Of a stretch of DNA of 33,830 nt, positions 8,101 through 29,886 are shown in pieces (the stretch's first letter is position 1; the number at the start of each line of letters is the position of its first letter). Location of the stretch: contig JAAYKT010000040.1 of the NCBI GenBank assembly GCA_012522255.1, positions 1 to 33,830 on the forward strand, written 5' to 3'. This DNA comes from Clostridiales bacterium. Lineage in GTDB: Bacteria; Bacillota; Clostridia; Lutisporales; Lutisporaceae. The position numbers were made by a program, and so were the translations under genes. The notes under the pieces were generated by a model, which was not told where the DNA came from, ran no database searches, and saw nothing but the letters and a program-made list of their open reading frames with translations.

Positions 8101-10435
8101 CCAAAGTGCTGGTGGTCTCCGTATCCCATGTGAATCCGGCTTTTACTACGGCTTCCGCTTCCACAGAAGCCACAGTAACGCCGAAAACTTTAAAATCCTG
8201 CTCATAAGACACATAGGCACCTACACTTATAGTGACGGATGATGTGCTTCCTGACCCGGAACCTTTTGTTGAGGAATAGCTCGTCGTTGACTCCCCATAG
8301 TTTCCCGATAGGTCATCCCTGTCTAAAAGGTCCTTAAAATAGGGTGGGGAAGCCAGAACTGTCAGCACCTCCGGGTCGGTATATGTAAAGTAGTGCCTGC
8401 CGCTGTAACTCATGTAGCTGGAGTCCCTATCCGTGTTGGCAAGACAAATGCCTGTTGAAAAGTCTTCTTCTGTACGCCTTATTTTATCAGTTGGATCTAC
8501 CGTTACCATATAAGCCTTACCCATTTCAAGTTTTGGATACTCAACCTCTACCGGGCTCACAGATGAGGTCGTTATTGTCCCGTTTTGTACAATTCGATAA
8601 CTTTTTATTTTAAAAATTTTACAAAACCAGTTTTTATAATAACTTTGAACCTCATATTTAGGTAAAGTAACGGAACCTTCAACAGTATAAGAGGCCGTCC
8701 CTTGCCTTTTGTTATCAGAAAGTGTCTGAATCATAGTTGCAAAGGTACTTGCCCCGGTTTTCCCTGTCAGATCTCCGGCTACCCCATCGTACTCCACATA
8801 ATCAACACAGTTACTTATATCTGATTGCATGGCGACAGTATTATCCCAAGCTTCTTTTAGTTTGAGCCCATCCTCCGTATACTCTATGATCAAGCTGTCA
8901 AAATAAAGCAAGTCGCCACCTTTGCCAAGACCTTGCCCGATCATTGCCGTATTGGATACACAAAAAGGCAGTGAATAAAACTTATCTTTTTGGGGCTCGG
9001 ACCTGGTACCCATAACAGTCCAGGTATAACTGTCCCCATCATGTTCAAACAAATCGAAATTCTGCTTTATGTTTGTGACAAAAGAATTACCATTCCAGTC
9101 ATAAAGGGCTGCATAGCGGGTTTGTGTATTTCCGGCACGAAGATCCGCATCGGATTGCCCGCACAATATAAGCGACTTGCTGTTTGCACCGGCCATATCA
9201 CCGTATGCAAAGGATGCACGAACAATATTGGATGTCCCATAGGTCAGGTCAAATTCCTGTGATTTTTGTAACATTTTGCTGCCCTTGCCACCAAACATAA
9301 CAACAGCCTTGGAACCTTTGTTCTGTTCAGGTCCGTAATAATAACCCCAGGTACCCGCCAAATCATCTATACCATCCTGATTCACATCACCGTTTGTGAA
9401 AGACACCATATTGGAAACCACATCACCCTCGCGAAGGTAATAAGTCCATGCAACTTTCCACTTGTCAGGATTCTTAAATGCTTCGGATTTGTTATCGCTT
9501 TCCGTCAGCTGCAATGCATAAATAATGATACGTGAATTACCCTTTTCCGGTATATAGACTGCTACCTCGTCCAAGCCGTCATTATTCCAGTCACCTGTTG
9601 TAATCTGAAGATAGTTGCGTAATTGGTATGGATTTTCGGCAAAGTTTTCGACAAGCTCACCTTCATATTTTAAATCCGGATTTCCAATTTCTTTTGCTGT
9701 ACTTAAAAGCTCTTTTGCATTTGAGCCGTAATTATCCGATGCCGCATTTCCAAAGCGAAGATATAGTCCTCCGTTTTTACTGTATTCGGCGGTATAAACC
9801 ATTGCTGTCTGAGCCTTTAGGCCTTCCTTGTTGCCATCAAAATTCCCCGTTGTCACGGAGGACATGGCATATTTAAAACTGTCAAACTGTGTATAGGCAT
9901 TTTTAGCTTCTTTCAAGTAACCGTTTCCTGGAATATTGGAAGCATTTATATCCTTTATTGTACCTGAACTGATTAATGTATAATTCCCTACAGTAGCAGT
10001 GGTACCTCCACTGAACAGGCTTTTAGACTCTCCGGACCCTAAAATGTATTCCTCATCCTTGTCCCACTGGTTATGTCCGTATAGGACTGAGTGCATCTCA
10101 ACACCGGTTTTTGTTTCTTCATGCCCGGCAGTGTTTCCGCCGCTTTGGAGTGTGCTTGTGCCGTAATTATAAGACTCGCCATATTGCACCTTTGTATCCA
10201 ACCCGACCTTATAAAGCTCGTTGACAGGGGCCACCTGGATAGTATTTCTGCCATAGGGGTTGTCCGTACTGTACGGGTCATAGCCCTCCGGTGCTTCGCC
10301 GGTATCAATACCCAAGGCGGTGAGAGCATCCATATCGACGTCAGCCGCTGCTGCTGAGACGGTTGTATTAAAAGTAGGTATAAGACCGATTATCATGACA
10401 AATGACAGTAATAGGCAAATAATTTTTCGCCTCAT
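2186..10435 (-). CDS. Giant (2749 aa) secreted, SLH-anchored multidomain cell-surface protein
   Basis: Uninterrupted 8.25-kb ORF with an N-terminal signal peptide (MRRKIICLLLSFVMIIGLIPTFNTTVSA/AAA). Domains in order: FG-GAP/VCBS-like loops, FN3, an Ig-like domain (YQWQK...DDGIYRCRV), an Ig-like repeat, an MBG-like domain (PGNYKV...NYSITYMPGNYTI) and nine InlB-B-repeat-like modules. It ends in three SLH domains. An AAGGGGA RBS lies ~11 nt upstream of the ATG. Confidence 0.9.
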   Translation of the reverse strand: MRRKIICLLLSFVMIIGLIPTFNTTVSAAAADVDMDALTALGIDTGEAPEGYDPYSTDNPYGRNTIQVAPVNELYKVGLDTKVQYGESYNYGTSTLQSGGNTAGHEETKTGVEMHSVLYGHNQWDKDEEYILGSGESKSLFSGGTTATVGNYTLISSGTIKDINASNIPGNGYLKEAKNAYTQFDSFKYAMSSVTTGNFDGNKEGLKAQTAMVYTAEYSKNGGLYLRFGNAASDNYGSNAKELLSTAKEIGNPDLKYEGELVENFAENPYQLRNYLQITTGDWNNDGLDEVAVYIPEKGNSRIIIYALQLTESDNKSEAFKNPDKWKVAWTYYLREGDVVSNMVSFTNGDVNQDGIDDLAGTWGYYYGPEQNKGSKAVVMFGGKGSKMLQKSQEFDLTYGTSNIVRASFAYGDMAGANSKSLILCGQSDADLRAGNTQTRYAALYDWNGNSFVTNIKQNFDLFEHDGDSYTWTVMGTRSEPQKDKFYSLPFCVSNTAMIGQGLGKGGDLLYFDSLIIEYTEDGLKLKEAWDNTVAMQSDISNCVDYVEYDGVAGDLTGKTGASTFATMIQTLSDNKRQGTASYTVEGSVTLPKYEVQSYYKNWFCKIFKIKSYRIVQNGTITTSSVSPVEVEYPKLEMGKAYMVTVDPTDKIRRTEEDFSTGICLANTDRDSSYMSYSGRHYFTYTDPEVLTVLASPPYFKDLLDRDDLSGNYGESTTSYSSTKGSGSGSTSSVTISVGAYVSYEQDFKVFGVTVASVEAEAVVKAGFTWDTETTSTLEQTITYTASSGEDMVAFYSIPMEIYEYKSYVPDGSGEYDEVLTTVNIPHEAAVRLLSLDEYEFIAKDYSVLPKIADNVLTHEIGSPASYPAKTDGYKVLAEYDDVPSAVGFSSTGGGSAIAQEIAMSKEKSSAFSISGGIEAKAGAGAGGFKVGVIAGVEGGGGSVDITTNGSSFTGELQNMPIEAQPYGYGMNWKIFCYIYSNAGSTFPVVSYLVSDVHNPPPLPEDFNQNTAETTSDSITLDWTYDSTIAGFRIYRYYEFPEGSGSYEVAFVPFNKGHKDGGLYHFSYVDVGLSPYSEYKYQIKSVRGLDPKESIYSEPLICRTKTEKGYPVISLNGLDGEGVLPIYPDADSTVTLEIKDEDNYNAFDYQWQKVTGGDFVSIPGRTSQSFTIKNAGAADDGIYRCRVNTIYYDETAAQEYYISAYSDSFATAYRKRTPIGKLTAQEIISGTESSLKADVEFYSANKGHSSAPSGNVTFMVKGTDYLYGKTVKLDQQTGTKYFEDLKESKLYSTASLTIPGLAKGVYTVTAYYSGSKVFKDYDISKETFVVIGDAQAYKLDLKTKENGEGTTKFTYGDHVYSSLSRIGKDAGGNITSTPISALFKLRDVNEETGTDFQSDSLTPSIGSYIVDAYIGGDLVASENFTVSKKPITVRIENKTSIDAGTVSSNEPVIQCADISQVDLENLKLDYITTNTAGNIVTLDNSTEPGNYKVIASIGPDTPSDLYNNYSITYMPGNYTIIGLTYWMEVKAEPYSSDGAVRPVGTAGITNETSAKAKYSSGSVVVLYAAPKAGFEVDKWTAVFEGSPVKVQSGGSTFILDMQACDVDVTVTFRPSRIGLTTIASPSAGGTVSCSDPTFSSGAIVGYGAEFGFKAYPAAGYHFKSWRIISGAKTETKQGLLNDDGTNELIITVGEASTIVYADFERDGYRLGLAGDIAAYYWYDNDNDPSTDNIKKNVSNGGIIPGDTVIIVEPKVGYSADEGAFFILNEEETEEISKLEFIITGDSFVSLQTVRNKYKVSLISENGYITAKINGVLKNENELKTVLGGTAIVFEAKAKRGYIFDHWEVNGDECGDEETFTITELGENSSVEAVFTGNIPYTVKADVSNESRGSMKYTLYDIYGELIEESVTMPEELTVYEGESIVLIVSVKTGSMVEQWQVNDDNIYTNEKTYTIDEIEDNIDVTVYLKAASSYMVYFAAEKGDIDDIHGTLSAKMDGKSFESGDLCYGGSSLRFNAEPDSDYMLDYWTVTEGDPSETEEDAATDEDRINIVEPVLNVDSLWKHMTVRAYFSDLQISTVTLAVYDSVYGEIGDSNGISEIVYITPIIPDDDGIRNSDMEKVRMGGTVKMTFKPSERYGTDADTLTEIFENQINSDALIDIENNEDDNEFTVTIRNLGKDIDLSEENIYYRLYNIEIPDSAHGNVIADYSRAKKGETITITVTPDSGYELKSLDINTSREIKQTDDFEYIFEMPGKDLIISAEFEKISYKVTPADSPNGSIKADHKKAQEGDVVTLTVTPDSGYRLKSLWTDPGCKLTKIEPLIYSFVMVDGDVTVTGIFERIPSDDDDSGGSGKGGGSAPKSSKKDKEESTVPTKTGVNITIDGTIANVDIDAAGLNEILTENGEVPFDFTDFGDINEAVIPGRLIGMITENETINTLSISLNAAHMTFDRQALLAIGSSDPDDIFISASIIGDNMLTIEQRSMVKDRPVLDLTITSKGKAISDFGQGTAKVSMHYILKEDENPGAIVVWYLNDKNVLECVNGYYDAETKTVNFTTNHFSKYIVGYVPFKDVSSNAWYFDSVSFAYGNGLFTGINMDEFAPGIPMTRGMFATVLWNMEGKPETEKDGSFGDVETGKWYEKAVNWASSQGIVSGYGNGIFGVNDEITREQAAVILMNYGKFKHYNIIVGAGLYQYTDGDNVSEWAKGALKWANGMKLITGVDGNTLVPKGKATRVEIATILQRFMGTVAR
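2189..2737 (-). other. Three tandem S-layer homology (SLH) domains (cell-wall anchor) at the C-terminus of the giant protein
   Basis: FKDVSSNAWYFDSVSFAYGNGLFTG...MTRGMFATVLW; FGDVETGKWYEKAVNWASSQGIVSGYGNGIFG...ITREQAAVILMNY; YTDGDNVSEWAKGALKWANGMKLITG...ATRVEIATILQRF. Confidence 0.85.
3410..5863 (-). repeat. Array of nine divergent ~75-118-aa beta-modules (divergent InlB B-repeat-like) within the giant CDS
   Basis: Protein residues ~1525-2342. Each module has a 'G..v.l.a.P..GY.f..W' core followed by a 'v.v.a.F' end, e.g. FKAYPAAGYHFKSWRI, FEAKAKRGYIFDHWEV, TVTPDSGYELKSLD, TVTPDSGYRLKSLW. The last two modules (nt 3410-3862) are clearly the most similar pair. Confidence 0.6.
6851..7438 (-). 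other. FN3 domain followed by an Ig-like (I-set-like) domain within the giant CDS
   Basis: Residues ~1000-1195. FN3: PLPEDFNQNTAETTSDSITLDWTYDSTIAGFRIYRYY...YSEYKYQIKSV. Ig-like: TVTLEIKDEDNYNAFDYQWQKV...SFTIKNAGAADDGIYRCRVN. Confidence 0.6.
8756..9853 (-). other. FG-GAP/VCBS-like repeat region (probable beta-propeller) within the giant CDS
   Basis: Residues ~195-560 carry recurring Ca-binding-like loops: TTGNFDGNKEG, TTGDWNNDGLDEVAV, TNGDVNQDGIDDLAG, AYGDMAGANSKSLIL, YDGVAGDLTGKTG. Confidence 0.55.
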
Positions 10436-10664: not shown

Positions 10665-11459
10665 TTAAAACTTTCCTGATTTATGTGAGGAACCGTGGGA
10701 ATTAATAGTTGTTCCCCCGGACGAACTCTTGGCCTTTTCCCGTTTTGTGCGTATAACGTTCCTATACAGAAATATATCTTCCCTGCCCGTCAGTTTCAAT
10801 CCTTCATCGGTGATGTATTCGTTTGCCCTGAGTTTTATTTTTGCAGTTTTCATCTTGCTACTTTGAACAACTACAGTTAAAAGTGCAATAATAAAAGGCA
10901 CTATTGCTAAAACTATTCTGCCTGTTTTCTTTTTACTATCGGGATCAGTCCTTATATCTATAGGCTCTCCAAACCGCGCCGACTCAAGATAACTATTACA
11001 GGTTTCTATAAAAACATTAAAACTGCTGTAATAGTCACCCATAGACAAACCCGGCAAAAACATATCCGCCAGTCTGTCCTTCCCGTAGTCTGTGAAAGCC
11101 ACATTGCCATAGCCGTGTGCCATTATATCGTAATCCCGCTCTGCCATGCTGATTATAAGCATTATACCGCTTCTATCTTCGCCGTAACCCAAATCGTATT
11201 GATCATAGATTGTCTGAGCATAGTCTTCTATATGGGCATCCCCTTTGTCATCAACAGTTATTATCATAATGTCACAGTCATATCTTTCGGAAGCCTCTTT
11301 GGCCTTATCATTTAATTCAACCCGTTCATCTTCTGTCAAAAGCCCTGCCCCGTCGGTGACATAGTCCAATTCTCCTGATCCCGCAAATAAATATAGTGGA
11401 CTGAATAAGGATAAGATCAGTAGCATTAGTAAGCAAATATTAGGTATTCTTTTTCTCAT
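10665..11459 (-). CDS. TPM-domain (TLP18.3/Psb32/MOLO-1-type) membrane protein, YdjH-like
   Basis: Signal/anchor sequence, then a TPM core (YVTDGAGLLTEDERVELNDKAKEASERYDCDIMIITVDD...GIMLIISMAERDYDI) and a C-terminal TM helix (IVLAIVPFIIALLTVVV). AGGAGG lies 8 nt before ATG 11459; the track's GTG 11468 overlaps that RBS. Confidence 0.8.
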   Translation of the reverse strand: MRKRIPNICLLMLLILSLFSPLYLFAGSGELDYVTDGAGLLTEDERVELNDKAKEASERYDCDIMIITVDDKGDAHIEDYAQTIYDQYDLGYGEDRSGIMLIISMAERDYDIMAHGYGNVAFTDYGKDRLADMFLPGLSMGDYYSSFNVFIETCNSYLESARFGEPIDIRTDPDSKKKTGRIVLAIVPFIIALLTVVVQSSKMKTAKIKLRANEYITDEGLKLTGREDIFLYRNVIRTKREKAKSSSGGTTINSHGSSHKSGKF

Positions 11460-11471
11460 TCTCTCCACCTC

Positions 11472-12563
11472 CTAAATAAAGCCCAGAAAGAACATTGCTA
11501 TGCCCATTAAAGCAGCCATCCCGCCCCAAATACCGAAAAACCAACCAAAAAGTTTGCTTTTGGAAATAGGCAGGTCACCTATGAGCTTGCCTGTCTGCCC
11601 ATTCATGGCAAATAAATAATTGTTGCCTTTCCATTTGGTTGCCAAAAGCCATACAGGCAGCAAAGCATATTTAATTGACCCTTGTTTCATTTCTATGTCC
11701 GCCCGGTTCACGCTGCAAGTAGTATATTCACTCACTGTTTGAGCAAATGCATCTGTGGTGCTGTTTTTCATCCTGACATTGACTCTTTGGGCGCTTTCCT
11801 CCGCATCCACATCATATTTATCAGCGAAAAATCCGGGCAAATAAGCCGTGGAAAAGGGCACCATTTCACTGTAATCATAGGGTTCAATAGCATCCATATG
11901 GGCATCGGGCATCTTTGTGGAACCATCCGCAGGTACTTTTTGGAAGTATATCTCACCCTCGCGTGTTACTCTATAATGAGAGGTCTCCGTAACATCATAA
12001 TCTCCAGAGCTCCACATTCGAACTTTTTGCCCGTTATATTGTATATAGGCATCAGCATCACAATCAAAGAGCCAAAAAGGCACATATACGCCTTTGATTT
12101 CTTCAATATGATTTTCGTCTTTAAATTCTTTTGGGAGTAGCAGCTTTTTATTATAATGGTTCTTCAAGGCCTTCATAGCTGCCACTTTATTGAGTTTAAA
12201 AGGTATTACATAATCCGGTTTTAGATTCCCGCCCAATTGTCCCGGTACAACGGTAGGATTTCCGCAATAAAGGCAACTGGTGGCGGCTGTAGTTTCATCT
12301 GTTATTATTTCTGCTCCGCAGGAGGGGCAGTTATATACCTTTAAGCCCTTGGCTTCCATCTCACTCCATGGAGAGCCGGCAGCATCAATATCCCACTGAG
12401 GCTCTTTGGCCTCTGCAGCTGCTTTATTTGCGTCTTCATATAGAGCTTCAATAGTTGCTACATCGTAAACATTTTCACAATATTCACACTGAAGCTTACC
12501 GCTTTCAGAAGAAAATTTAAGGGGACCCGTACAGGACGGGCATTTGTAATTGGTTACTTGCAC
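11472..12563 (-). CDS. Double zinc-ribbon membrane protein, YdjG-like
   Basis: Two CxxC...CxxC ribbons (YKCPSCTGPLKF...LQCEYCENVY and YNCPSCGAEII...SCLYCGNPTV) plus a C-terminal TM helix (FGWFFGIWGGMAALMGIAMFFLGFI). The likely start is GTG 12563, downstream of AAGGGGGAG; the track start 12599 encloses that RBS. Confidence 0.7.
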   Translation of the reverse strand: MQVTNYKCPSCTGPLKFSSESGKLQCEYCENVYDVATIEALYEDANKAAAEAKEPQWDIDAAGSPWSEMEAKGLKVYNCPSCGAEIITDETTAATSCLYCGNPTVVPGQLGGNLKPDYVIPFKLNKVAAMKALKNHYNKKLLLPKEFKDENHIEEIKGVYVPFWLFDCDADAYIQYNGQKVRMWSSGDYDVTETSHYRVTREGEIYFQKVPADGSTKMPDAHMDAIEPYDYSEMVPFSTAYLPGFFADKYDVDAEESAQRVNVRMKNSTTDAFAQTVSEYTTCSVNRADIEMKQGSIKYALLPVWLLATKWKGNNYLFAMNGQTGKLIGDLPISKSKLFGWFFGIWGGMAALMGIAMFFLGFI

Positions 12564-12816
12564 GCTTATTGTTATCTCCCCCTTTATTACAAACCACACA
12601 AATTATGTATATCTAACGCTAAATTTTATACCTTCTGAACCAACATTTTAAATCCTGCCGGAAGGATTAAGATCCTTCGCTGCGCTCAGATACCATAGTA
12701 AACCAAGTGATATTTTAAGAAAAAACAACCACCTATAGCAAGGCGTGGGGCTATTCGTAGCTGGCGGTCAAAGACCGCCCCTACAAGATGTTTTACATAA
12801 TATGACATTATCTATA

Positions 12817-14160
12817 TTATTGCTGATCCTTTTCGTCAAATACATCCCCACATTCCGGACAGAATTTGGGTGGATTATTGAGATCCTTCGGTTCCCAACC
12901 GCATTTATCACATTTATACAAAGGCGCCCCGGCAGGCTTTGGTTTGCCACACTCCTGACAGAAGTTGACCTTATTCACCGCACCGCAGGAGCAAGCCCAG
13001 CCTTCCTGCGCAGGTTGGGGTTTGCCGCATTCAGCACAGAATTTCCCTATATTGCCCCGGTGCCCGCATGATGCACATATCCATCCTGCTACCACCGGTG
13101 GCGGTGTAGTTTGAGGTGTTTGAGGTTGAGTCGGCGGTTGCTGTCCTTGTTGGCCCATGCCGTATAAACCTTGTGCATTCATTCCTCCTACATTTTGCGC
13201 CATTCCCATTCCCATAAACGCCATAGCAGGCCCTGCCGTTGGATTACTTGCTGCCGATTGCATAGCTGCTGCCTGGGAACCGACAAGATGTGCCGCTGCT
13301 CTGGTGGGGTCCATAAAAGCCGCATTTCTCTGCAATTCCTTTATCATTTTTTCATCTTCATCTGATGCTTTGACTGAGGAAACACCAAAGGAAATGATCT
13401 CAAGCCCCCTAAGTTCGCTCCATTTTGCCGACAATACTTCATTAATTGCATTGGCTATTTCTTCCGTATGTCCCGGCAGTGCGCTGTAGCGTATTCCCAT
13501 TTGTGAAATCTTTGCAAAAGCCGGTTGTAGCGCTGACATAAGCTCGGACTTTAATTGCCCATCTATTTCGCTTCTATTATAATCTCTCTCTACATTTCCC
13601 GTAACATTGGTATAAAACAACATCGGGTTGGTTATTTTATAACTGTATTCTCCGAAACATCTTATTCCTATATCAATATCAATGCCGGCTCTTTCATCCA
13701 CAACTCTAAAAGGTACAGGACTTGGAGTACCATATTTGTTTCCTACCAATTCTTTTGTATTGAAATAGTATACTCTCTGATCTTTTCCCGGATCGCCGCC
13801 AAAAGTAAAACGCTTACCTATTTGAGAAAAAACCGCCTTAATATTTTCTTTATTTAATCCGCCATATAAAAGTGTAGGCTCTGTGGAAGTGTCATAAACA
13901 AATTCGCCCGGCTCAGCGCAAATGTCCACTACCTTTCCTTGATCCACAATAATCATACATTGACCGTCTGCAACCGCAATTATTGAACCGTTCGATATGA
14001 TGTTGTTTTCGCCTTTTGTATTGGAGCTCCTGCCTCCGACCCTTTTTTGACCTTTGGCTACTAATACATCCACCGGCATGGATTCACTATAGAAAAAATC
14101 GCGCCATTGGTCTGCCATTACGCCGCCAAAGGCTCCTATCCCTGCTTTAAATATACCCAC
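12817..14160 (-). CDS. SPFH-domain protein of the COG4260 / YdjI type ('virion core protein-like') with three C-terminal zinc ribbons
   Basis: The N-terminus GIFKAGIGAFGGVMADQWRDFFY...LVAKGQKR...NIISNGSIIAVADGQCMIIVDQGKVVDICAEPGEFVYD is typical of this family. A Q/P/G/M-rich linker follows, then CASCGH..FCAECG, CSCGA..FCQECG and CDKCGW..FCPECG. The likely start is GTG at codon 4 (14160), 9 nt after GAGGGA. Confidence 0.85.
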   Translation of the reverse strand: MGIFKAGIGAFGGVMADQWRDFFYSESMPVDVLVAKGQKRVGGRSSNTKGENNIISNGSIIAVADGQCMIIVDQGKVVDICAEPGEFVYDTSTEPTLLYGGLNKENIKAVFSQIGKRFTFGGDPGKDQRVYYFNTKELVGNKYGTPSPVPFRVVDERAGIDIDIGIRCFGEYSYKITNPMLFYTNVTGNVERDYNRSEIDGQLKSELMSALQPAFAKISQMGIRYSALPGHTEEIANAINEVLSAKWSELRGLEIISFGVSSVKASDEDEKMIKELQRNAAFMDPTRAAAHLVGSQAAAMQSAASNPTAGPAMAFMGMGMAQNVGGMNAQGLYGMGQQGQQPPTQPQTPQTTPPPVVAGWICASCGHRGNIGKFCAECGKPQPAQEGWACSCGAVNKVNFCQECGKPKPAGAPLYKCDKCGWEPKDLNNPPKFCPECGDVFDEKDQQ

Positions 14161-14254
14161 ATTGATCACTCCCTCATCATTAATATATTATTATTCTATA
14201 CCCTATCCATAGATAACTTTTTTCATGCTTATTGCTTTTTAACTGTCACACCTA

Positions 14255-14282: not shown

Positions 14283-14367
14283 ATAGTCAATTTCTTGCTT
14301 GTGGGATAGAATCCATAAGAAACATATTTGCATAAAAAAATGCCTATGCAGTTTTAAAAACTTAAAA

Positions 14368-14416
14368 TTTGAAAAGCAAAAGCCTACCCCTCTTCAGTTG
14401 AAGGGCAAGCTTTTTT
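14368..14416 (-). terminator. Rho-independent terminator downstream of the aconitase-X small subunit gene
   Basis: The minus strand reads GCTTGCCCTTC-AACT-GAAGAGGGGTAGGC (an imperfect GC-rich hairpin) followed by TTTTGCTTTTCAAATTTT. A T-run is also present on the plus side. Confidence 0.6.
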
Positions 14417-14439: not shown

Positions 14440-14880
14440 TCACTTTATAACCACGACACCATCTTCCCCCACGGTAACAGTCATGCCTGTTTCCACTGCC
14501 TGCAAAAATTCATCACCAAGGCTATCCACAGTTGGCATGGATGCATCAGTCCATACATCAGCCAATATCACCCCAGCTGCCGCTAAAGAATCAATAGGCT
14601 TACTGAACAGCAGACATGCCGGCTGCCGGGATAGGGCCGCAGCACAGTATAACACCATACCCCCTGTTGTGGAGCCTATGGTTTGAGGCAGGCACAAGGC
14701 TTTACCGTACATAGCCTTGTTATATAAATCCGGATTGTTTTGGTCCGAGCAAGTGGCTTTTTTGTCACCAAACATGAGACTTTTTTGAAAGCTGGCCAAG
14801 GTATTAAAACCACCTCGGGAAACAAGGGCCTCTGCCTCTACTGTACCGGGCACCACTACACGTCCTTGAAATCGCTTCAT
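14440..14880 (-). CDS. Aconitase X swivel-domain subunit (DUF126)
   Basis: 146 aa. GRVVVPGTVEAEALVSRGGF...GKALCLPQTIGSTTGGMVLYCAAALSRQPACLLFSKPIDSLAAAGVILA matches the DUF126/AcnXS pattern. The ATG lies 1 nt after the upstream stop, with a GGGGAGG RBS inside the upstream gene. Confidence 0.85.
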   Translation of the reverse strand: MKRFQGRVVVPGTVEAEALVSRGGFNTLASFQKSLMFGDKKATCSDQNNPDLYNKAMYGKALCLPQTIGSTTGGMVLYCAAALSRQPACLLFSKPIDSLAAAGVILADVWTDASMPTVDSLGDEFLQAVETGMTVTVGEDGVVVIK

Positions 14881-14881
14881 A

Positions 14882-16153
14882 TCAGCACACCTCCCCGGAA
14901 AGTTTCTTTAGAATATCCCCGTCGGTATAGTATCGTGCGGTGGTATAAGTACGCAGTTTATTTGAATTCGTAATTACAGGCATTTTACCGCACAGCGGGT
15001 TATTCATATACATCAAGGGGCAAATGCTGCTGACCACTACCCCCATGTTTTTTAAAGTATCTTTTTCGGGGGTATCATTAAAAGCCGCAAGTACTGCGGG
15101 AGCTGTCGTAAACACCGTTGGGACGGCTACTTTGCCACGTCCTTGAGCCTTGAGAGAATCCGACAATCTGGTTGTCCAGTCCTTCAACTGGTTCAGCGAA
15201 AGATGAGGACAGCCGATAAAGCATAGTTTTGGCTCGGTATTTCTGTCCTTCCATACTATCGGATAGTTGTTTTTCACCCGTTCGAGCTCTGCATCATCTA
15301 CCACATAAGTTTTAGCCCCCTCTGTAATCAATCCCTCACCCTTTTCCACCGCCTCGGGAGTCAGATTTTCTATATGATACAATCCCACCGCACCGTTACT
15401 TGCTGTGGCGGCACCAAAATCTTTCAAATAATCTTTAGCCTCTTGAGTAAGCTCGGTTCCCAACCATTTATCCAGCCCTTTCACATAAGGTACATCTTCC
15501 ATGACCTTCATGCCGATGGCACTGCCCAGTACCTGAGCTTCCGGCTTTTTATCCGTTTTTACTTCTATTATCCAGTTAGCACGGCGACCTTCATCCGTTA
15601 ACAGCCCGAAATACGGTACATATCCTACTATGCTTCCGAAAAGCTCCAAAATCCCTGAATTACGATTGCAACGGGCCCCACATACGCTGTTTGCGTATAC
15701 CACGGCACTGGATTCTGCCCAAGACAGAACTTCCCCGTATTTAGGAATGTTCCCCACCTGATCCATATAGCAGGTGCATGTATAAGCGTCATCAGACATA
15801 ATGCCCAACTTTTGCAGCTGCACATCATAGTCTTTCTGCTTTGAATACATCACTTTAAAAAATATATTTTGCAACAAATTCGCCGGCACGTTCTTGTCAA
15901 GGGGACGGGGGTCTACGGAAAAAGGCTGTTTGGAAAGGGCCCCGGCTTCAATAAGCTGGTCCATTAATTCATACACCGGCTTCATAACCGATAATCCGAA
16001 ACTTGTGACCAAGTGCCCCTTTTCACTATCAACGGGTACCATTTTTTCCGCGCCAAAAGCTTCTCCATACATCACCAAAGTCTTCATAACCTTGGAAAGT
16101 GTCTCACCCTGACTTCCGTCTAATATCTGTTGTTGTTCCAAAGTAAGCTGCAT
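14882..16153 (-). CDS. Aconitase X catalytic subunit (DUF521)
   Basis: The N-terminus MQLTLEQQQILDGSQGETLSKVMKTLVMYGEAFGAEKMVPV is typical of DUF521. Conserved Cys-containing stretches are present (CTCYMDQVG, SVCGARCNRNSG, FIGCPHLS). The likely start is ATG 16153, 11 nt after AAGGAG; the track's GTG 16165 abuts that RBS. Confidence 0.85.
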   Translation of the reverse strand: MQLTLEQQQILDGSQGETLSKVMKTLVMYGEAFGAEKMVPVDSEKGHLVTSFGLSVMKPVYELMDQLIEAGALSKQPFSVDPRPLDKNVPANLLQNIFFKVMYSKQKDYDVQLQKLGIMSDDAYTCTCYMDQVGNIPKYGEVLSWAESSAVVYANSVCGARCNRNSGILELFGSIVGYVPYFGLLTDEGRRANWIIEVKTDKKPEAQVLGSAIGMKVMEDVPYVKGLDKWLGTELTQEAKDYLKDFGAATASNGAVGLYHIENLTPEAVEKGEGLITEGAKTYVVDDAELERVKNNYPIVWKDRNTEPKLCFIGCPHLSLNQLKDWTTRLSDSLKAQGRGKVAVPTVFTTAPAVLAAFNDTPEKDTLKNMGVVVSSICPLMYMNNPLCGKMPVITNSNKLRTYTTARYYTDGDILKKLSGEVC

Positions 16154-16172
16154 AGCCTTCATCACTCCTTTT

Positions 16173-18230
16173 TTACAACTTCATGCCCACATCCCAGGCA
16201 CTCCAAATCACCGTTCTCAAGTTGCCAACCTTCACCGCATCTCCTACAGTTTTACCACGGCTGCCCGAACCCTGGAGGGGCATAGGTTTATAGCCCACTG
16301 ACAAAATGACACTGTCTGCCTCAATTTTAAAATCTTTGCCATCTTTGTCCGTAACCAGGACGCCATCATCAAGTATTTCCTTTAGTTTTGTTTCCAAATA
16401 CACCGGTACCTCATAGGTTTTGAAGAAATCCCGCAGGTAACTGGAATTGGCCAGACATACACCGGTAACTGCTATAAGGTCCTGTTTCATTTCAACGATA
16501 GCGGGTTTTTTACCTTTCAGATACAGTTCGTAAGCTATTTCACAACCGGTGAGGCCGCCGCCGATAATTACCACGTTTTCTCCTACTTTCTTTTCCCCGG
16601 ACAGGTATTCGATGGCCTCTATTCCCTTTTCAAAACCTTTAACCGGCAAGCGGATGGATTTGGCTCCCGTGGCCACCACAATTTCATCTGCATCTAATGC
16701 ATCTATATCTTTTATTTCAGTATTGAGCCTGATTTCTATCTTCGGGTATTTGGCAATTTCCCTTTGATACCAGGTCAAAAGCTCTCTGTCCTTTTCTTTA
16801 AAAGACGGAACCGCCGCCCAATTGAATACGCCTCCCAATTCATCGCCTTTTTCATATAATGTGACGGTATGTCCCCGTTTTGCAGCCACTATTGCCGTTT
16901 CCATACCGCCGATGCCCCCGCCTATAACAGCAATTTTTTTGCTGTTTGCCGTCGGGATAATTTTATATTTTTTGGACTGCATGGTCCTGGGGTCAAGGAC
17001 ACAGCGCGCAATATGTGCCGCATCATAGATGGATTGATCGTTGGCCACACCTTTGTAGTGGCTGAAATTGAAACAGGCATTGTGACAGCATATGCAAGGC
17101 CTTATATCATCCAACCTGTCTTCAATAAGCTTTGTGACCCATTCTCCGTCGGCCAAAAACTGACGGGCAAAACCCGCGCCGTCGATGCGGCCTTCAGCAA
17201 TTGCTTCTGCCCCCACTTCCGGCTCCATACGCCCCGCACAGACTACAGGTATATCAACAAATTTTTTAATGTGTGCCACATCTTCCAGATTACAGTTCTT
17301 TGGCATATACATAGGCGGATGTGCCCAGTACCAGGAATCATAGGTGCCGTTATCAGCGTTTAGCATATCATAACCCGCATCCTGTAAATACTTCACTGCC
17401 TTTTCACTTTCCTCCAAGTCTCGGCCAACCTCGGTGTAATCTTCTCCAGGAAGTGCACCATAGCGAAAATCCTTCATCTTTGAAACCGCGGAATATCTCA
17501 ATGATACCGGGAAATCCTTACCGCAGGTTTCTTTGATAGCCTGCACAATCTCCACAGGAAAACGATATCTGTTTTCAAAGGAGCCGCCATATTCATCTGT
17601 ACGTTTATTTGTATATTCCATAGTAAACTGATCCAACAGATAGCCTTCATGGACTGCGTGTACCTCCACGCCATCGACGCCTGCATCCATGCATAACTTT
17701 GCGGTTTTGGCAAAGCCGTCTATTATCTCACGGATTTCCTGCAGGGTAATTTCACGGCACATAACCTTGTCCGACCAGCGAGATGGTAATTCGCTTGGGC
17801 TTGCAGATTGATACTGCACATCTATAATTGGTTTTGCCAAAGCATGCAAAAGCGGATTGTTATGAAGCATAACTAAGTGGTCAGTAATAGCCCAGGAACG
17901 TCCCATCCCGGCGGTCATCTGAACAAAAAGCTTAGCCCCGGTCTTATGTATTTCATCCATAAAAATCTTAAGATCCCGAAACATTTTTTTGTTCTTCCAC
18001 AGCCACCGCCCGCCTATGGTATCCTTAATGGGAGCAATACCGGGTATAATGAGCCCTACATTATTTTTGGCCCTTTCCAAAAAAAAGTGGGCAGCCTCCT
18101 TATCAAAATGATTGGGCTCCATCCAACCAAACAAAGAAGTGCCACCCATAGGGCAAAGAACAATACGGTTTTTGATTTCCACATTGCCGACTTTCCAAGG
18201 GGTAAATAATGGTTCAAACTTAGGATCCAT
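16173..18230 (-). CDS. 2-enoate reductase / 2,4-dienoyl-CoA reductase-family NAD(P)H:flavin oxidoreductase (FMN + [4Fe-4S] + FAD)
   Basis: 685 aa. It has an OYE-like TIM barrel (NRIVLCPMGG..., GVDGVEVHAVHEGYLLDQF), a Cys cluster (RPCICCHNAC...ARCVLDP) and two dinucleotide folds (KIAVIGGGIGGMETA, VVIIGGGLTGCEIA). An AAGGAG RBS is present. Confidence 0.9.
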   Translation of the reverse strand: MDPKFEPLFTPWKVGNVEIKNRIVLCPMGGTSLFGWMEPNHFDKEAAHFFLERAKNNVGLIIPGIAPIKDTIGGRWLWKNKKMFRDLKIFMDEIHKTGAKLFVQMTAGMGRSWAITDHLVMLHNNPLLHALAKPIIDVQYQSASPSELPSRWSDKVMCREITLQEIREIIDGFAKTAKLCMDAGVDGVEVHAVHEGYLLDQFTMEYTNKRTDEYGGSFENRYRFPVEIVQAIKETCGKDFPVSLRYSAVSKMKDFRYGALPGEDYTEVGRDLEESEKAVKYLQDAGYDMLNADNGTYDSWYWAHPPMYMPKNCNLEDVAHIKKFVDIPVVCAGRMEPEVGAEAIAEGRIDGAGFARQFLADGEWVTKLIEDRLDDIRPCICCHNACFNFSHYKGVANDQSIYDAAHIARCVLDPRTMQSKKYKIIPTANSKKIAVIGGGIGGMETAIVAAKRGHTVTLYEKGDELGGVFNWAAVPSFKEKDRELLTWYQREIAKYPKIEIRLNTEIKDIDALDADEIVVATGAKSIRLPVKGFEKGIEAIEYLSGEKKVGENVVIIGGGLTGCEIAYELYLKGKKPAIVEMKQDLIAVTGVCLANSSYLRDFFKTYEVPVYLETKLKEILDDGVLVTDKDGKDFKIEADSVILSVGYKPMPLQGSGSRGKTVGDAVKVGNLRTVIWSAWDVGMKL

Positions 18231-18348
18231 AATATCAACTCCTTTTCTTTCATTTAACTTTTATTTATTTATAATTATTGAGTATTGTCCAATAAAATAT
18301 GGCAGTCATTTTGAACACCGGTAGTTCCATTAAAACAACTGACTTTTG

Positions 18349-19200
18349 TTACCTACTGGCACCGCCGCCGCCGCTTCTGCCTCCGCCAAAACCGCCTCCT
18401 CCAAAGCCACCGCCGCCAAAGCCACCGGATCTGCCCGAACCGCCACTAAAACCACCGAAGCCGCCGTAATAGCCTCCCCTACCTCTGTAATTGCCACCTT
18501 TTTTAAACCCTCTTCTGATTAATAAAAAGATAATAAGTAAGACTACCACCACTATCCACATCGGAATTTCATTAATATCATCTACAGGGTAGTTTTGCAA
18601 CCCGAAAAGGCCTTCTTTTTCCAGATCCAAATCATATTCTTTTGCAACCTCCGAGGCCACCGCCATAAAGGTGTCTTTAACACCTTTTGAAAAATCCTTG
18701 TCTTCAAAAGCAGTCATGGCATAATCATCAAGAATAGCCCCTGCTTTACCGTCATTAATTGCCCCTTCCAGACCGTACCCGACTTCTATACGAATTCGGC
18801 CCCGCTGATTTTTCAACAGGCTCTCCTCATTAACTAAAATCAAAACACCATTGTTTTTATTCTTATCACCTATACCCCAATCCCTGAACAGCTTAACAGC
18901 ATAGTCCTCTATCTCCATTCCCGACAAATCTTTTACAATGACTGCTGCAATCTGAGCTTTTGTTTTGTCTTCAATTACTTTACCGACCCTCTGCATTTCC
19001 TGAATATCACTTTTATTTACCATGCCGGCATAATCAAAAACAAATGTATTTGTCGCAGGTTTCACCGGAATAACCTGTGCAAAAACTAAAAAACCGCATG
19101 CCAAAGTGAGGGTCATAGTTATCAATAAAAACACCGATAATTTAACCTTATAATATTTAAAACTTGCTTTTCTTTTTAAATTCTTGTTGTATTTAGTCAA
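18349..19200 (-). CDS. TPM-domain membrane protein with a Gly-rich C-terminal tail (YgcG-like)
   Basis: N-terminal anchor, then a TPM core (FVFDYAGMVNKSDIQEMQRVGKVIEDKTKAQIAAVIVKDL...NGVLILV), a TM helix (MWIVVVVLLIIFLLI) and a GGFGG-repeat tail. TTG start. Confidence 0.85.
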   Translation of the reverse strand: MTKYNKNLKRKASFKYYKVKLSVFLLITMTLTLACGFLVFAQVIPVKPATNTFVFDYAGMVNKSDIQEMQRVGKVIEDKTKAQIAAVIVKDLSGMEIEDYAVKLFRDWGIGDKNKNNGVLILVNEESLLKNQRGRIRIEVGYGLEGAINDGKAGAILDDYAMTAFEDKDFSKGVKDTFMAVASEVAKEYDLDLEKEGLFGLQNYPVDDINEIPMWIVVVVLLIIFLLIRRGFKKGGNYRGRGGYYGGFGGFSGGSGRSGGFGGGGFGGGGFGGGRSGGGGASR

Positions 19201-19220
19201 AATGTATCACCGCCTATAAA

Positions 19221-19784
19221 CTAAAAATCTACCTTGGGAACCTCCTTGGCTCCCTCAGCCGCCTGAAAATAGTCTCTTTGTTGAAAATTGAACATCCCCG
19301 CTATAATAGAAGTGGGAAATCTTCTTATTTTAACATTATATGACTGAACTGCATTATTATAATCCATACGGGAAACAGCTATACGGTTTTCTGTCCCTGC
19401 GAGCTCATCGGAAAGCTGCCTGAAATTTGCATCTGCCTTAAGCTCCGGATAGTTTTCTGCTATTGCAAGGAGTCTGGACAGCGATCCCGTAAGTTCCTGA
19501 TCCGCCTTAGCCATGTCACCCACTGTACCTGCACCAATAAGTTTTTCCCTGGCTTTTGTAACCTCGGTAAATATTTTTTCCTCATGGGAAGCAAAACCCT
19601 TAACTGTGCTGACCATATTAGGAATCAAATCCATCCTGCGCTGAAGCTGGTTTTCTACCTGGCTCCAGGAACTCGTCACAGCCTCATCGGAAGAAACCAA
19701 ACCGTTATATGAGCCAAAAATAGATATAGCTATAACTGCGAGTATCACTAACAAAACTATAACCGGACTAAACATCTTTTTCAT
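19221..19784 (-). CDS. lemA: LemA-family membrane protein
   Basis: 187 aa. N-terminal TM helix plus the LemA signature SSWSQVENQLQRRMDLIPNMVSTVKGFASHEEKIFTEVTKAREKL. A TAGGAGGGG RBS is present. Confidence 0.9.
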   Translation of the reverse strand: MKKMFSPVIVLLVILAVIAISIFGSYNGLVSSDEAVTSSWSQVENQLQRRMDLIPNMVSTVKGFASHEEKIFTEVTKAREKLIGAGTVGDMAKADQELTGSLSRLLAIAENYPELKADANFRQLSDELAGTENRIAVSRMDYNNAVQSYNVKIRRFPTSIIAGMFNFQQRDYFQAAEGAKEVPKVDF

Positions 19785-28003: not shown

Positions 28004-28678
28004 TTGAAACATAAAATATTGATTGTTGATGATGAAAAAGGCATTGTCACAATGATGAAGAATTATTTTGAAATGTCAGGATACCAAGTGTATTCTGCTT
28101 ATAATGGTAACGAGGCTCTTCAAAAAGTCTCCTGCCAACCGGACATCATTTTGCTCGATATCAATATGCCGGAGATGGACGGCATTTCTGTTTGCCGGCG
28201 TATTCGTGAACACATCTCCTGCCCAGTCCTTTTTCTCACTGCCCGTATCGAGAGCAAGGATAAAATTATAGGATTGCAGGCCGGTGCGGATGACTATATT
28301 GTCAAGCCCTTTGACATAGATGAGCTGGGGGCGCGAGTGGAAGCACATTTGCGCCGTGAACAGCGGAAGCAGGAACGGTCTGTAGTGCGATTTTTTGACG
28401 AGCTGGCTATCGACTATTTGAAAAGAGAGATAACGATAAATACTAATCTTATCCTGTTATCAAAAAAAGAATTTGATATTGTAGAGCTGCTTTCCGTGAA
28501 TGCTGGACAAGTTTTTGACCGGGAACGTATTTACGAAGTCATATGGGGCATTGAGGGTGACGGCAGCAGTGATACCATCATGGAGCATATACGAAAGATC
28601 CGTTTAAAATTAGCTGCGTATACCAACCACAGTTATATTAAAACGATATGGGGGGTAGGTTATAAGTGGAACGGCTAA
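28004..28678 (+). CDS. OmpR-family response regulator (REC + winged-helix)
   Basis: KILIVDDE...DIILLDINMPEMDG...VLFLTAR...GADDYIVKPF, plus the Trans_reg_C ending IKTIWGVGYKW. Confidence 0.9.
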   Translation: MKHKILIVDDEKGIVTMMKNYFEMSGYQVYSAYNGNEALQKVSCQPDIILLDINMPEMDGISVCRRIREHISCPVLFLTARIESKDKIIGLQAGADDYIVKPFDIDELGARVEAHLRREQRKQERSVVRFFDELAIDYLKREITINTNLILLSKKEFDIVELLSVNAGQVFDRERIYEVIWGIEGDGSSDTIMEHIRKIRLKLAAYTNHSYIKTIWGVGYKWNG

Positions 28679-29829: not shown

Positions 29830-29836
29830 GTAATTT

Positions 29837-29853
29837 TTGAGAATTACTTGATA
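29837..29853 (+). promoter_or_regulatory. TTGAGA-N5-TTGATA direct repeat upstream of the ABC genes (candidate response-regulator box)
   Basis: TTGAGA lies at 29837-29842 and TTGATA at 29848-29853. The hexamer and 11-bp spacing are the same as the box at 27946-27962. Confidence 0.4.
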
Positions 29854-29854
29854 A

Positions 29855-29886
29855 ACTCTCCTTATCAACGGAAGGAGAGTATTTTT
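29855..29886 (+). terminator. Hairpin plus U-run between the kinase and ABC genes; its 3' arm is the ABC ATPase Shine-Dalgarno
   Basis: ACTCTCCTT (29855-29863), loop ATCAACGG, then AAGGAGAGT (29872-29880), a perfect 9-bp stem. ATTTTT follows, then ATG at 29887. Confidence 0.55.

Follow-up and report, generated by a model that had tools for sequence, protein, structure and literature searches.

Conserved pairing of a bacterial type II aconitase X with an enoate reductase-type flavoenzyme probably marks an uncharacterized organic-acid pathway

Introduction

What reaction might join an aconitase X (AcnX) to an enoate reductase-type flavoenzyme (ER) in one transcription unit? The two known AcnX activities are cis-3-hydroxyproline dehydratase and mevalonate-5-phosphate dehydratase, and the literature lists bacterial AcnX types IIc-f as being of unknown function. 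The window analyzed here, a 33,830-nucleotide stretch of contig JAAYKT010000040.1 (assembly GCA_012522255.1) from a Clostridiales bacterium, encodes both AcnX subunits next to such a flavoenzyme. An initial annotation had read the locus as a DUF521/DUF126-type AcnX beside a clostridial-type enoate reductase, and had offered 3-hydroxyproline to pyrroline-2-carboxylate to proline, feeding Stickland metabolism, as an example of what the pair could do.

Results

The ER gene and the genes for the large and small AcnX subunits form a single compact operon (Table 1). ER ends in a TAA at 16175-16173 and the large subunit has three candidate starts, GTG 16165, ATG 16162, and ATG 16153; the last lines up with Met1 of the archaeal TkAcnX, and the real start is probably either ATG 16153 (423 aa) or ATG 16162 (426 aa), as judged from the sequence. 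The large subunit terminates with a TGA at 14884-14882, leaving a gap of 1 nt before the small-subunit ATG. The tight packing of three minus-strand genes noticed in the initial annotation is thus confirmed by the ORF coordinates, the 1-nt gap, and the ribosome-binding sites (RBSs), and the hairpin and U-run with which it ended the unit folds with a minimum free energy of -22.3 kcal/mol (z = -3.1), a stability reached by 0 of 200 shuffled sequences. Its remark that the unit includes no transporter or regulator also holds for the adjoining genes, the flanks in the window encoding TPM, LemA, Band_7_1, and zinc-ribbon proteins. Neither a promoter nor a terminator of consensus type turned up when the 118-bp spacer preceding the ER gene was scanned, and transcription possibly reads through from the upstream LemA/TPM genes.

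Table 1. Positions of genes and signals of the AcnX-ER operon within the window
Feature	Position	Strand	Description	Basis
ER gene	16173-18230	minus	685 aa	ORF and Pfam profile match
AcnX large subunit gene	14882-16165	minus	427 aa counted from GTG 16165	ORF and Pfam
AcnX small subunit gene	14440-14880	minus	146 aa	ORF and Pfam
RBS of ER gene	18239-18244	minus	AAGGAG, 8 nt upstream of the ER ATG	
RBS of AcnX large subunit	16165-16170	minus	AAGGAG	read from sequence
RBS of AcnX small subunit	14890-14896	minus	GGGGAGG, 9 nt upstream of ATG 14880	
Intrinsic terminator	14364-14414	minus	15-bp hairpin 14378-14414, then U-rich tail	

The large subunit matches Pfam family PF04412 (E = 1e-93, 314.7 bits against a cutoff of 31.5) and the small subunit PF01989 (E = 1e-10, 41.2 bits against a cutoff of 27). 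The top PDB match of the large subunit is TkAcnX (7cnr_A, E = 6e-45), which at 157 bits is nearer than AtAcnX at 73 bits. Alignment to these enzymes, with the residue roles in Tk and At AcnX taken from PMC8184944, identifies the cluster ligands as C130/C319/C382 (Tk C110/C283/C342), invariant in 127 AcnX orthologues and corresponding to a type II [4Fe-4S]/[3Fe-4S] cluster, unlike the [2Fe-2S] set of AtAcnX. The residues that bind the hydroxyl and carboxylate, E151/S152/S153/K403/Y407, are likewise invariant in the 127 orthologues; E151, S152, and K403 are equivalent to Tk E129, S130, and K361, and Y407 to At Y534. The small subunit, the swivel domain (domain 4), carries the catalytic serine motif G69-S70-T71-T72, whose S70 aligns with Ser62(S), the general base of the Tk enzyme (7cnr_B), as well as a clade motif, C44-x-DQNN-x-DLY; the small-subunit motifs are kept in sister-clade proteins. 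The protein is therefore a two-subunit AcnX by its tandem PF04412 and PF01989 genes, three Cys ligands, Ser base, and binding set. Three features of the large subunit, H51, D85-P-(R/K)87-P, and R405, set it apart from both characterized AcnX enzymes; two of them, H51 and R405, are shared with further uncharacterized bacterial type II AcnX proteins. Because the residues that define both known activities are replaced, the window's AcnX belongs, by its sequence, with the function-unknown bacterial type II proteins.

ER contains PF00724 (residues 8-372, E = 8e-59) and PF07992 (residues 432-651, E = 1e-34), and its single chain has an OYE-type FMN barrel, a [4Fe-4S] cluster, and FAD and NAD(H) Rossmann folds. 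The cluster motif C379xxC382xxxC386...C410, the Rossmann motifs GGGIGG437 and GGGLTG557, and the catalytic residues H191/H194/Y197 are invariant in 103 orthologues. By sequence, the closest structural relatives are NCR (6qkg, E = 2e-59), to which ER aligns over its full length, and FadH (1ps9, E = 6e-59). In domains and motifs, ER is an Fe-S flavoenzyme of the enoate reductase/FadH/BaiCD type. Assignment as the bile acid enzyme BaiCD or the bilirubin reductase BilR was rejected, the scores against the NCBIfam equivalogs falling below cutoff in both cases (343.4 against 825 for BaiCD and 348.8 against 750 for BilR-long). Some orthologues have been named "2-enoate reductase" by JGI, which is an automatic name only.

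The family assignments of the initial annotation survive these comparisons: the profile searches it proposed matched all four families, the AcnX assignment is further backed by the structure alignments, and the cluster cysteines, which it had suggested aligning, are intact. "Clostridial-type enoate reductase" holds as a description of architecture only. The initial annotation had also reasoned that a close reductase homologue with an assigned substrate foreign to AcnX would speak against the pairing; the close homologues all lack a functional assignment.

Adjacency of the two enzymes, which the initial annotation had proposed surveying, proved to be conserved across genomes and phyla and to persist in different gene orders and with different reductase subtypes; the genes occur together in hundreds of anaerobes of the gut. 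An ER-family gene adjoins AcnX in 45 of 67 informative loci (36 orthologues and 9 copies of a 755-aa paralogue), and AcnX adjoins ER in 56/74, mostly with gaps of 11-60 nt and in the orders ER-L-S and L-S-ER, plus one convergent case. The adjacency is kept even where ER has been swapped for paralogues only 29-41% identical: AcnX proteins that share 74% identity adjoin reductases that share only 29%, and the reductases recruited beside AcnX come from two ER subgroups, HAVHEGY and HGHEGY. It extends to Coriobacteriales, Flexilinea, and Sphaerochaetaceae, and a sister clade (52-61% identical) has the same trio in the cultured anaerobes C. carboxidivorans P7, Thermoanaerobacter, and Capillibacterium and in a cultured Clostridium sp., sometimes with TetR or sigma-54/PAS regulators. 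By our estimate a genome has only a few ER-family genes, which would put the likelihood of chance adjacency at well under 1%. The AcnX-ER pairing is not due to chance. Distances within the two families also co-vary (Mantel r = 0.66, reached by 0/999 permutations), a correlation that may merely mirror shared species history.

The two genes also occur apart. ER is not adjacent in 22 of the 67 AcnX loci, AcnX is not adjacent in 18 of the 74 ER loci, and one ER at 79% identity adjoins an amidase instead. ER-linked and unlinked AcnX proteins are intermixed in the AcnX tree; together with the unlinked loci, this indicates that each enzyme can serve, or be encoded, separately. In the aerobes Rhodococcus and Bacillus, AcnX is found with LysR and the reductase is absent; in Rhodococcus, an MHS-family organic-acid/H+ symporter gene is adjacent. 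Characterized enoate reductases are oxygen-sensitive. At the related loci examined, no conserved neighbor was found besides AcnX and ER, and the flanks contain unrelated genes of housekeeping type and lack transporters, so the context says nothing on the substrate in this clade.

Discussion

AcnX and ER probably constitute an uncharacterized organic-acid pathway. We lean, with modest confidence, toward a module of two enzymes that works on a free organic acid, independently of CoA, and takes a beta-hydroxy acid through a 2-enoate to a saturated acid. The conserved residues suggest that the AcnX heterodimer works as a [4Fe-4S] hydro-lyase of the aconitase type, in which Ser70 of the small subunit would take the proton from C-alpha, Glu151 and the free iron of the Cys130/Cys319/Cys382 cluster would together activate the beta-hydroxyl, and Ser152, Lys403, Tyr407, and Thr71(S) would hold the carboxylate, giving a 2-enoate as product. 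The family and motifs of ER point to electron flow from NADH by way of FAD and [4Fe-4S] to FMN, with hydride delivered to C-beta, a proton donated to C-alpha by Tyr197, and the carboxylate held by His191/His194, which would saturate the C=C bond. The net reaction would be beta-hydroxy acid + NADH + H+ -> saturated acid + NAD+ + H2O and would serve fermentative anaerobes as an electron sink. Since a beta-hydroxy acid can be dehydrated reversibly, the reaction may run in either direction in vivo. Characterized clostridial enoate reductases reduce free 2-enoates, dicarboxylates included (PMC5460604).

The positive or polar residues of the clade at the TkAcnX phosphate site or near the catalytic lysine (His51, Arg/Lys87, Arg405) bear on the substrate; because of them we infer that it carries a further anionic group and would be a hydroxy di- or tricarboxylate. 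Candidate conversions are citrate/aconitate to tricarballylate, citramalate/mesaconate to methylsuccinate, and malate/fumarate to succinate. This proposal depends on alignment to TkAcnX and AtAcnX, and Arg87 sits in an 8-residue insertion. The invariant Asp85 at the position of Tk Asn79 is unexpected beside an anionic group and counts against a polycarboxylate. As a speculative and rather unlikely case, AcnX may interconvert citrate or a related acid with trans-aconitate, which ER would reduce to tricarballylate in a previously unrecognized CoA-independent route for a hydroxy or unsaturated polycarboxylate from plants. Ruminal tricarballylate formation is linked to grass tetany, and to our knowledge its enzymes have never been identified; the trans-aconitate route, if true, would name them. 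It would also assign bacterial AcnX types IIc-f their first function and reveal the natural role of the enoate reductases in a large gut clade.

Both known AcnX activities have to be weighed against such a module. The hydroxyproline route of the initial annotation, in which AcnX would dehydrate cis-3-hydroxyproline to pyrroline-2-carboxylate and ER would reduce this to proline, has the same logic as the known system, where AcnX dehydration is followed by NAD(P)H-dependent reduction; AcnX types I and IIa are reported to have the dehydratase activity, the At residue in contact with the ring nitrogen, Thr72, has its counterpart in Thr72 of the small subunit, and the ER superfamily takes in C-N oxidoreductases such as TMADH (121 bits against ER). 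Thr72 is, however, the only substrate landmark retained. At Asp203, Trp35, and Ile206, whose mutation inactivates or cripples AtAcnX, are replaced by His51, Leu28(S), and Thr54; the cluster ligands are those of type II rather than the At set, AtAcnX is the more distant of the two homologues, and the NCBIfam equivalog NF051439 scores 139.8 bits against a cutoff of 700. Known pyrroline-2-carboxylate reductases belong to families other than that of ER. With no hydroxyproline or proline-reductase genes nearby in the window, we consider this route very unlikely and do not retain the Stickland role proposed with it. A bacterial phosphomevalonate dehydratase in an archaeal-type mevalonate pathway is still harder to credit and we give it almost no weight, although TkAcnX is the nearest solved structure and some relatives in UniRef are called "phosphomevalonate dehydratase large subunit-like". 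The type IIb enzymes (TkAcnX, 7CNR/7CNS; A. pernix PMDh) share with the window's AcnX the two subunits, the Cys ligands, the Glu-Ser-Ser, Lys, and Tyr set, and the small-subunit catalytic Ser. The phosphate landmarks are nonetheless replaced: Tk Asn53 corresponds to residue 59, which varies among Ser, Lys, and Gly, Asn79 to the invariant Asp85, which is followed by the insertion PRPLDKNV, and Tk Gly48-Val49-Ser50 to Leu52-Val53-Thr54. The type IIb partner is a UbiD-type decarboxylase, whereas here it is a reductase, for which that pathway has no use; neither a UbiD/UbiX decarboxylase nor an isopentenyl phosphate kinase was found in the window or the related loci examined, and the clade consists of fermenting bacteria in which no genes of the modified mevalonate pathway lie close by.

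A different arrangement of the same two reactions is a tentative possibility to which we assign a clear minority share: AcnX would hydrate, and ER reduce, the same free 2-enoate (for example of the aconitate, mesaconate, fumarate, crotonate, or cinnamate type), so that the enoate is dismutated, the hydroxy acid feeding oxidative or assimilatory metabolism while the ER portion balances redox. The AcnX and ER genes are often found apart, ER-only loci exist, and the AcnX-only aerobes with LysR and an organic-acid symporter fit an enzyme that supplies a central metabolite by hydration; AcnX reactions are reversible, and PMDh has been assayed in the hydration direction in the literature. Hydration and dehydration look alike in sequence, and translational coupling and the repeated re-recruitment of ER suit a sequential pathway at least equally. 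The dehydrate-then-reduce order explains the data only slightly better than this branch point. That the adjacency is functionally meaningless, the genes being independent neighbors or hitch-hiking together in horizontal transfers, we find improbable. The unlinked loci, about one-third for AcnX and one-quarter for ER, would agree with it, as would a Mantel correlation produced by species history, but the adjacency outlasts order inversion, strand change, phylum shift, and replacement of ER by paralogues at loci that have no other conserved neighbor.

Among known systems, the electron sink of the dehydrate-then-reduce module has the same net course, from a hydroxy acid by way of an enoate to a saturated acid, as fumarase with fumarate reductase and the CoA-level pairs crotonase/Bcd and CaiD/CaiA. 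Their protein families are wholly different, and the AcnX-ER module appears to act on free acids with no CoA activation, membrane, or electron-bifurcating partner. In bile-acid 7-alpha-dehydroxylation by gut anaerobes, BaiE together with BaiCD/BaiH likewise removes water and then saturates a C=C bond. BaiCD/BaiH and BilR belong to the ER superfamily and are its top NCBIfam matches, but the BaiE dehydratase is SnoaL-like, not an Fe-S protein, and unrelated to AcnX, the Bai and BilR substrates are steroids and tetrapyrroles, and no bai or bil genes were found near the operon. Compared by description, the 2-enoate reductases of EC 1.3.1.31 (C. tyrobutyricum, C. acetobutylicum, C. kluyveri, M. thermoacetica, B. 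coagulans ER-BC, and C. sporogenes FldZ) resemble ER in size (~665-685 aa) and in their FMN barrel, [4Fe-4S], FAD, and NADH domains. They are described as stand-alone enzymes of broad specificity with no dehydratase partner, whereas the window's ER is paired with AcnX, and they take free, non-activated 2-enoates, including dicarboxylates, which is the sort of product that AcnX would release.

Operon Architecture

Three minus-strand genes of the window form an operon that encodes a 685-aa Fe-S flavoenzyme of the enoate reductase family (ER) followed by the large (L) and small (S) subunits of aconitase X (AcnX). An AAGGAG lies just past the ER stop codon. The large subunit has three candidate starts (GTG 16165, ATG 16162, and ATG 16153), the last of which aligns with Met1 of the archaeal AcnX of Thermococcus kodakarensis (TkAcnX), and only 1 nt separates its TGA from the small-subunit ATG (14880). 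The junction geometry read from these stops, starts, and AAGGAG is the one that the initial annotation had described as packing for co-translation. The terminator it had placed after the unit is also borne out, as the hairpin with its U-rich tail has a folding energy of -22.3 kcal/mol (z = -3.1) and none of 200 shuffles was equally stable. A simple scan of the 118-bp spacer upstream of the ER gene gave no consensus promoter or terminator match, and an Rfam scan of the window gave no riboswitch or other RNA.

Coordinates of the operon and of other features in the window
Feature	Position	Strand	Remark
ER ORF	16173-18230	-	685 aa
AcnX large subunit ORF	14882-16165	-	427 aa from GTG start
AcnX small subunit ORF	14440-14880	-	146 aa
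ER stop TAA	16175-16173	-	
AAGGAG	16170-16165	-	just past ER stop
Large-subunit TGA	14884-14882	-	
Small-subunit Cys44 codon	14749-14751	-	
Terminator hairpin	14378-14414	-	15 bp, U-rich tail, downstream of trio
Membrane-associated gene set	10665-14169	-	downstream of operon
Membrane-associated gene set	18349-19784	-	upstream of operon
Antisense ORF within ER gene	16869-17363	+	164 aa
Antisense ORF within ER gene	17877-18209	+	110 aa
Long ORF	2186-10435	-	2749 aa
Sensing/export genes	28004-33038	+	

As previously stated, the trio includes no transporter or regulator, and the flanking genes encode none either. It is bracketed by membrane-associated gene sets, with TPM and LemA genes upstream and genes for a Band_7_1 protein with a double zinc ribbon, a zinc-ribbon protein, and a second TPM protein downstream. 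A termite-gut Christensenellaceae contig is syntenic with the window (ER-L-S-Band_7_1; locus L169). The two antisense ORFs within the ER gene most likely reflect the mechanical listing of ORFs rather than real genes.

Catalytic Machinery of the Two Enzymes

Pfam profile searches uphold the family assignments made earlier for all three proteins: the large subunit is AcnX (PF04412, E 1e-93), the small subunit is AcnX_swivel (PF01989), and ER combines Oxidored_FMN with Pyr_redox_2. ER aligns over its full length with 2-naphthoyl-CoA reductase (6qkg) and FadH (1ps9). Its C379xxC382xxxC386...C410 cluster, GGGIGG437 and GGGLTG557 motifs, and His191/His194/Tyr197 site are invariant across 103 orthologues. 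The top curated-family scores of ER, 349 bits for BilR-long (cut-off 750) and 343 bits for BaiCD (cut-off 825), are both far under threshold. The closest homologues of the trio proteins carry generic names only, and none comes with an assigned function.

The best solved relative of the large subunit is TkAcnX (7cnr_A, E 6e-45), a mevalonate-5-phosphate dehydratase; the match to the Agrobacterium cis-3-hydroxyproline dehydratase is far weaker (E 2e-19). Residue roles were taken from Watanabe et al. 2021 (PMC8184944) and transferred onto the window AcnX through alignments with these two enzymes. The Fe-S ligand cysteines of the type II cluster are all intact (C130, C319, C382), and the large subunit keeps Glu151-Ser152-Ser153, Lys403, and Tyr407. 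In the small subunit, Ser70 aligns to the general base within a GSTT motif. These ligands and catalytic residues, Ser70 included, are invariant across 127 orthologues. The catalytic machinery is intact in both enzymes. Cys44 of the small subunit, in the motif C-x-DQNN-x-DLY, is kept in the clade and in its sister clade and is absent from TkAcnX.

Conservation of the AcnX-ER Pairing

The association of AcnX with ER is conserved across genomes. When one genome per species was scanned, relatives of the large subunit turned up in at least 594 genomes. Their sources are anaerobic and include human gut, rumen, and termite gut, and the carriers include Oscillospiraceae, Acutalibacteraceae, Lachnospiraceae, Christensenellaceae, Coriobacteriales (Collinsella massiliensis), Flexilinea, and Sphaerochaetaceae. 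Among the best 80 of these loci, 45 have an ER-family neighbor, 22 with full flanks do not, and 13 have incomplete flanks. Orthologous ER (62-82% identical) accounts for 36 of the 45 pairings, 35 of them directly upstream of AcnX on the same strand and one convergent; the other nine are copies of a 755-aa ER paralogue. When a metagenome scan is anchored on ER instead, AcnX is adjacent at 56 loci and absent at 18 with full flanks, and seven have incomplete flanks. The 56 pairings divide into 33 ER-L-S and 23 L-S-ER loci, the latter redundant because they come from one abundant human-gut organism.

ORF clustering of 161 related loci found nothing conserved beyond the three genes, with no transporter, regulator, or third enzyme, and the surroundings of the trio are housekeeping genes, e.g., groEL, valS, folC, and guaB. 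A neighbor-joining tree does not separate ER-linked from unlinked AcnX, and the two hence form one orthologous group. Pairwise identities of AcnX and ER co-vary (Mantel r = 0.66), a value reached by 0 of 999 permutations.

The nine paralogue-bearing loci (L003, L005-L007, L019, L020, L034, L035, and L079) have a reductase of 752-775 aa that is about 29% identical to the 685-aa ER and carries HGHEGY instead of HAVHEGY, placed directly upstream of an AcnX 72-76% identical to that of the window. In cultured anaerobes, the sister clade has the same trio. Its AcnX is 49-61% identical to the window AcnX and has the same large-subunit motifs (HxVTSFG, DP(R/K)PxD, and ITNSNKLRTY) and small-subunit motifs (CxDQNNxDLY and IGSTTGGM). 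Clostridium carboxidivorans P7 has a TetR gene and then ER679-L-S, Thermoanaerobacter sp. a sigma-54/PAS activator gene and then ER665-L-S, a Clostridium sp. ER666-L-S, and Capillibacterium thermochitinicola L-S-ER722. Two subgroups of partner reductases can be told apart by active-site motif, HAVHEGY or HGHEGY, and their mutual identity is about 30%. Even where two AcnX proteins are 74% identical, their partner ERs can be 29% identical. The repeated recruitment of different reductases of the same family beside a constant AcnX points to a functional link and is otherwise hard to explain. We consider AcnX-ER well supported as a functional unit that is widespread in gut anaerobes and directly testable.

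At one locus (L081, 8001-11818), the gene after an ER 79% identical to that of the window encodes, instead of AcnX, a 560-aa protein with an amidase signature; genes for a GntR regulator and a Bmp-type ABC uptake system lie close by. Reductases of this type may therefore also work with a different upstream enzyme. The amidase was rejected as a substrate clue, as it is generic and under every equivalog cut-off. In the Clostridium sp. locus L174 (2107-9741), bioY, bioD, bioA, and a divergent bioB directly precede the trio; found at this single Clostridium locus, the biotin link was set aside as incidental. A gene for a small MCP-signal protein follows the L174 trio, and another MCP-signal gene lies near that of Capillibacterium.

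Proposed Reaction and Alternatives

From family knowledge, AcnX would most likely convert a free beta-hydroxy carboxylate to a 2-enoate and water, and ER would reduce the enoate with NADH to the saturated acid; the net reaction would be a reductive dehydroxylation with NAD+ regenerated. The carboxylate-binding Ser/Lys/Tyr/Thr set of AcnX favors a free acid over a CoA ester. Characterized enoate reductases take free 2-enoates, C6 dicarboxylates included (PMC5460604).

The specificities of both known AcnX activities are lost in the window AcnX. In the initial annotation, 3-hydroxyproline was offered as an example, with dehydration to pyrroline-2-carboxylate and reduction to proline. Where the Agrobacterium enzyme binds proline with Asp203, Trp35, and Ile206, the window AcnX has His51, Leu28 (small subunit), and Thr54, and its score with the NCBIfam cis-3-hydroxyproline dehydratase equivalog is 140 bits (cut-off 700); the example is not upheld, and we consider this route very improbable. 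Phosphomevalonate dehydration can be practically dismissed, as it fails on gene context at the loci examined as well as on its landmarks: the phosphate-binding Asn53 of TkAcnX corresponds to a variable residue, and its phosphate-binding Asn79 to an invariant Asp85 that is followed by an 8-residue insertion, PRPLDKNV. These replacements agree with the published statement that AcnX types IIc-IIf are without the landmark residues of either known activity and have unknown function.

Two further explanations concern the pairing itself. An adjacency without functional meaning would be at odds with the gene-order and paralogue-replacement data, and we judge it quite unlikely. Alternatively, AcnX and ER could meet at a branch point, the same enoate being hydrated by the former and reduced by the latter. 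Such an arrangement would account for aerobic loci with AcnX alone and for the fact that each gene often occurs without the other; we give it a minor but appreciable chance.

For sequential dehydration and reduction, several observations suggest, as a weaker inference, that the substrate may carry a further anionic group and be a hydroxy di- or tricarboxylate. His51 occupies the Agrobacterium Asp203 position, Arg/Lys87 sits in the insertion beside the TkAcnX Asn79 equivalent, and Arg405 lies two residues past the catalytic Lys, where the Agrobacterium and TkAcnX types have Ala. His51 was rejected as a clade-specific marker: most bacterial type II AcnX representatives have it, so the clade is not defined by His51 alone. 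Aerobes (Bacillus sp., Rhodococcus sp. ZPP, and an R. opacus PD630 plasmid) have AcnX without reductase and with a divergent LysR gene. That they need AcnX alone implies that its product already belongs to central metabolism, in keeping with such a substrate. The same holds for the transporter encoded in the operon neighboring Rhodococcus AcnX, which scores 424 bits as a metabolite/H+ symporter (MHS; the family includes ShiA, KgtP, and TcuC) and 67 bits as AAHS in NCBIfam. Candidates are citrate/aconitate/tricarballylate, citramalate/mesaconate/methylsuccinate, and malate/fumarate/succinate, each of them individually unlikely. An aromatic (cinnamate-type) or short-chain (crotonate-type) acid is possible. 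The aromatic lead came from an mhpA/mhpC/mhpB-like 3-carboxyethylcatechol meta-cleavage cluster about 5 kb from the Rhodococcus AcnX pair; given the transporter typing, which goes against an initial guess that the protein was an aromatic-acid symporter, cinnamate or beta-hydroxyphenylpropionate was downgraded. The AcnX pair and divergent LysR gene occur in L177 (R. opacus PD630 plasmid pRoPD630_1, 1-11472) and L172, both Rhodococcus loci, and alpha/beta hydrolase and SDR genes also lie beside the pair.

Significance

Both enzyme families are already known, and the AcnX clade is functionally orphan. In an incomplete literature search, we found no report of an AcnX-ER module, and none of the literature found on AcnX, DUF521, or DUF126 addresses one. 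Bacterial AcnX types IIc-f are a large orphan group; clustered at 50%, the whole AcnX family has 1857 representative clusters at E <= 0.001 and 230 at E <= 1e-30. Which substrates clostridial enoate reductases use physiologically has, to our knowledge, been unclear ever since these enzymes were discovered. With the search narrowed by the conserved physical link to free beta-hydroxy acid/2-enoate pairs, a simple in vitro screen under anaerobic conditions becomes worthwhile. In gut ecosystems, the module may serve as an unrecognized electron sink and supply saturated organic acids. Direct entry is offered by cultured carriers that have regulators: C. carboxidivorans P7 (Ccar_03865 region), Thermoanaerobacter, and R. 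opacus PD630 (K2Z90_RS40375/40380).

Other Features of the Window

The stretch between about 2 kb and 19 kb, in which the operon lies, has a G+C of 0.39-0.46, against 0.32-0.37 at 0-2 and 19-28 kb. The translation of the long ORF has an N-terminal signal-like segment, many Ig/fibronectin-like repeats, and a C-terminal region resembling S-layer-homology repeats, and its product is probably a giant cell-surface protein. The plus-strand sensing/export genes encode a putative response regulator, a HAMP/HisKA histidine kinase, a probable ABC ATPase, and an 826-aa FtsX/MacB-type permease, a typical peptide-sensing/export module that is unconnected with the AcnX-ER trio.
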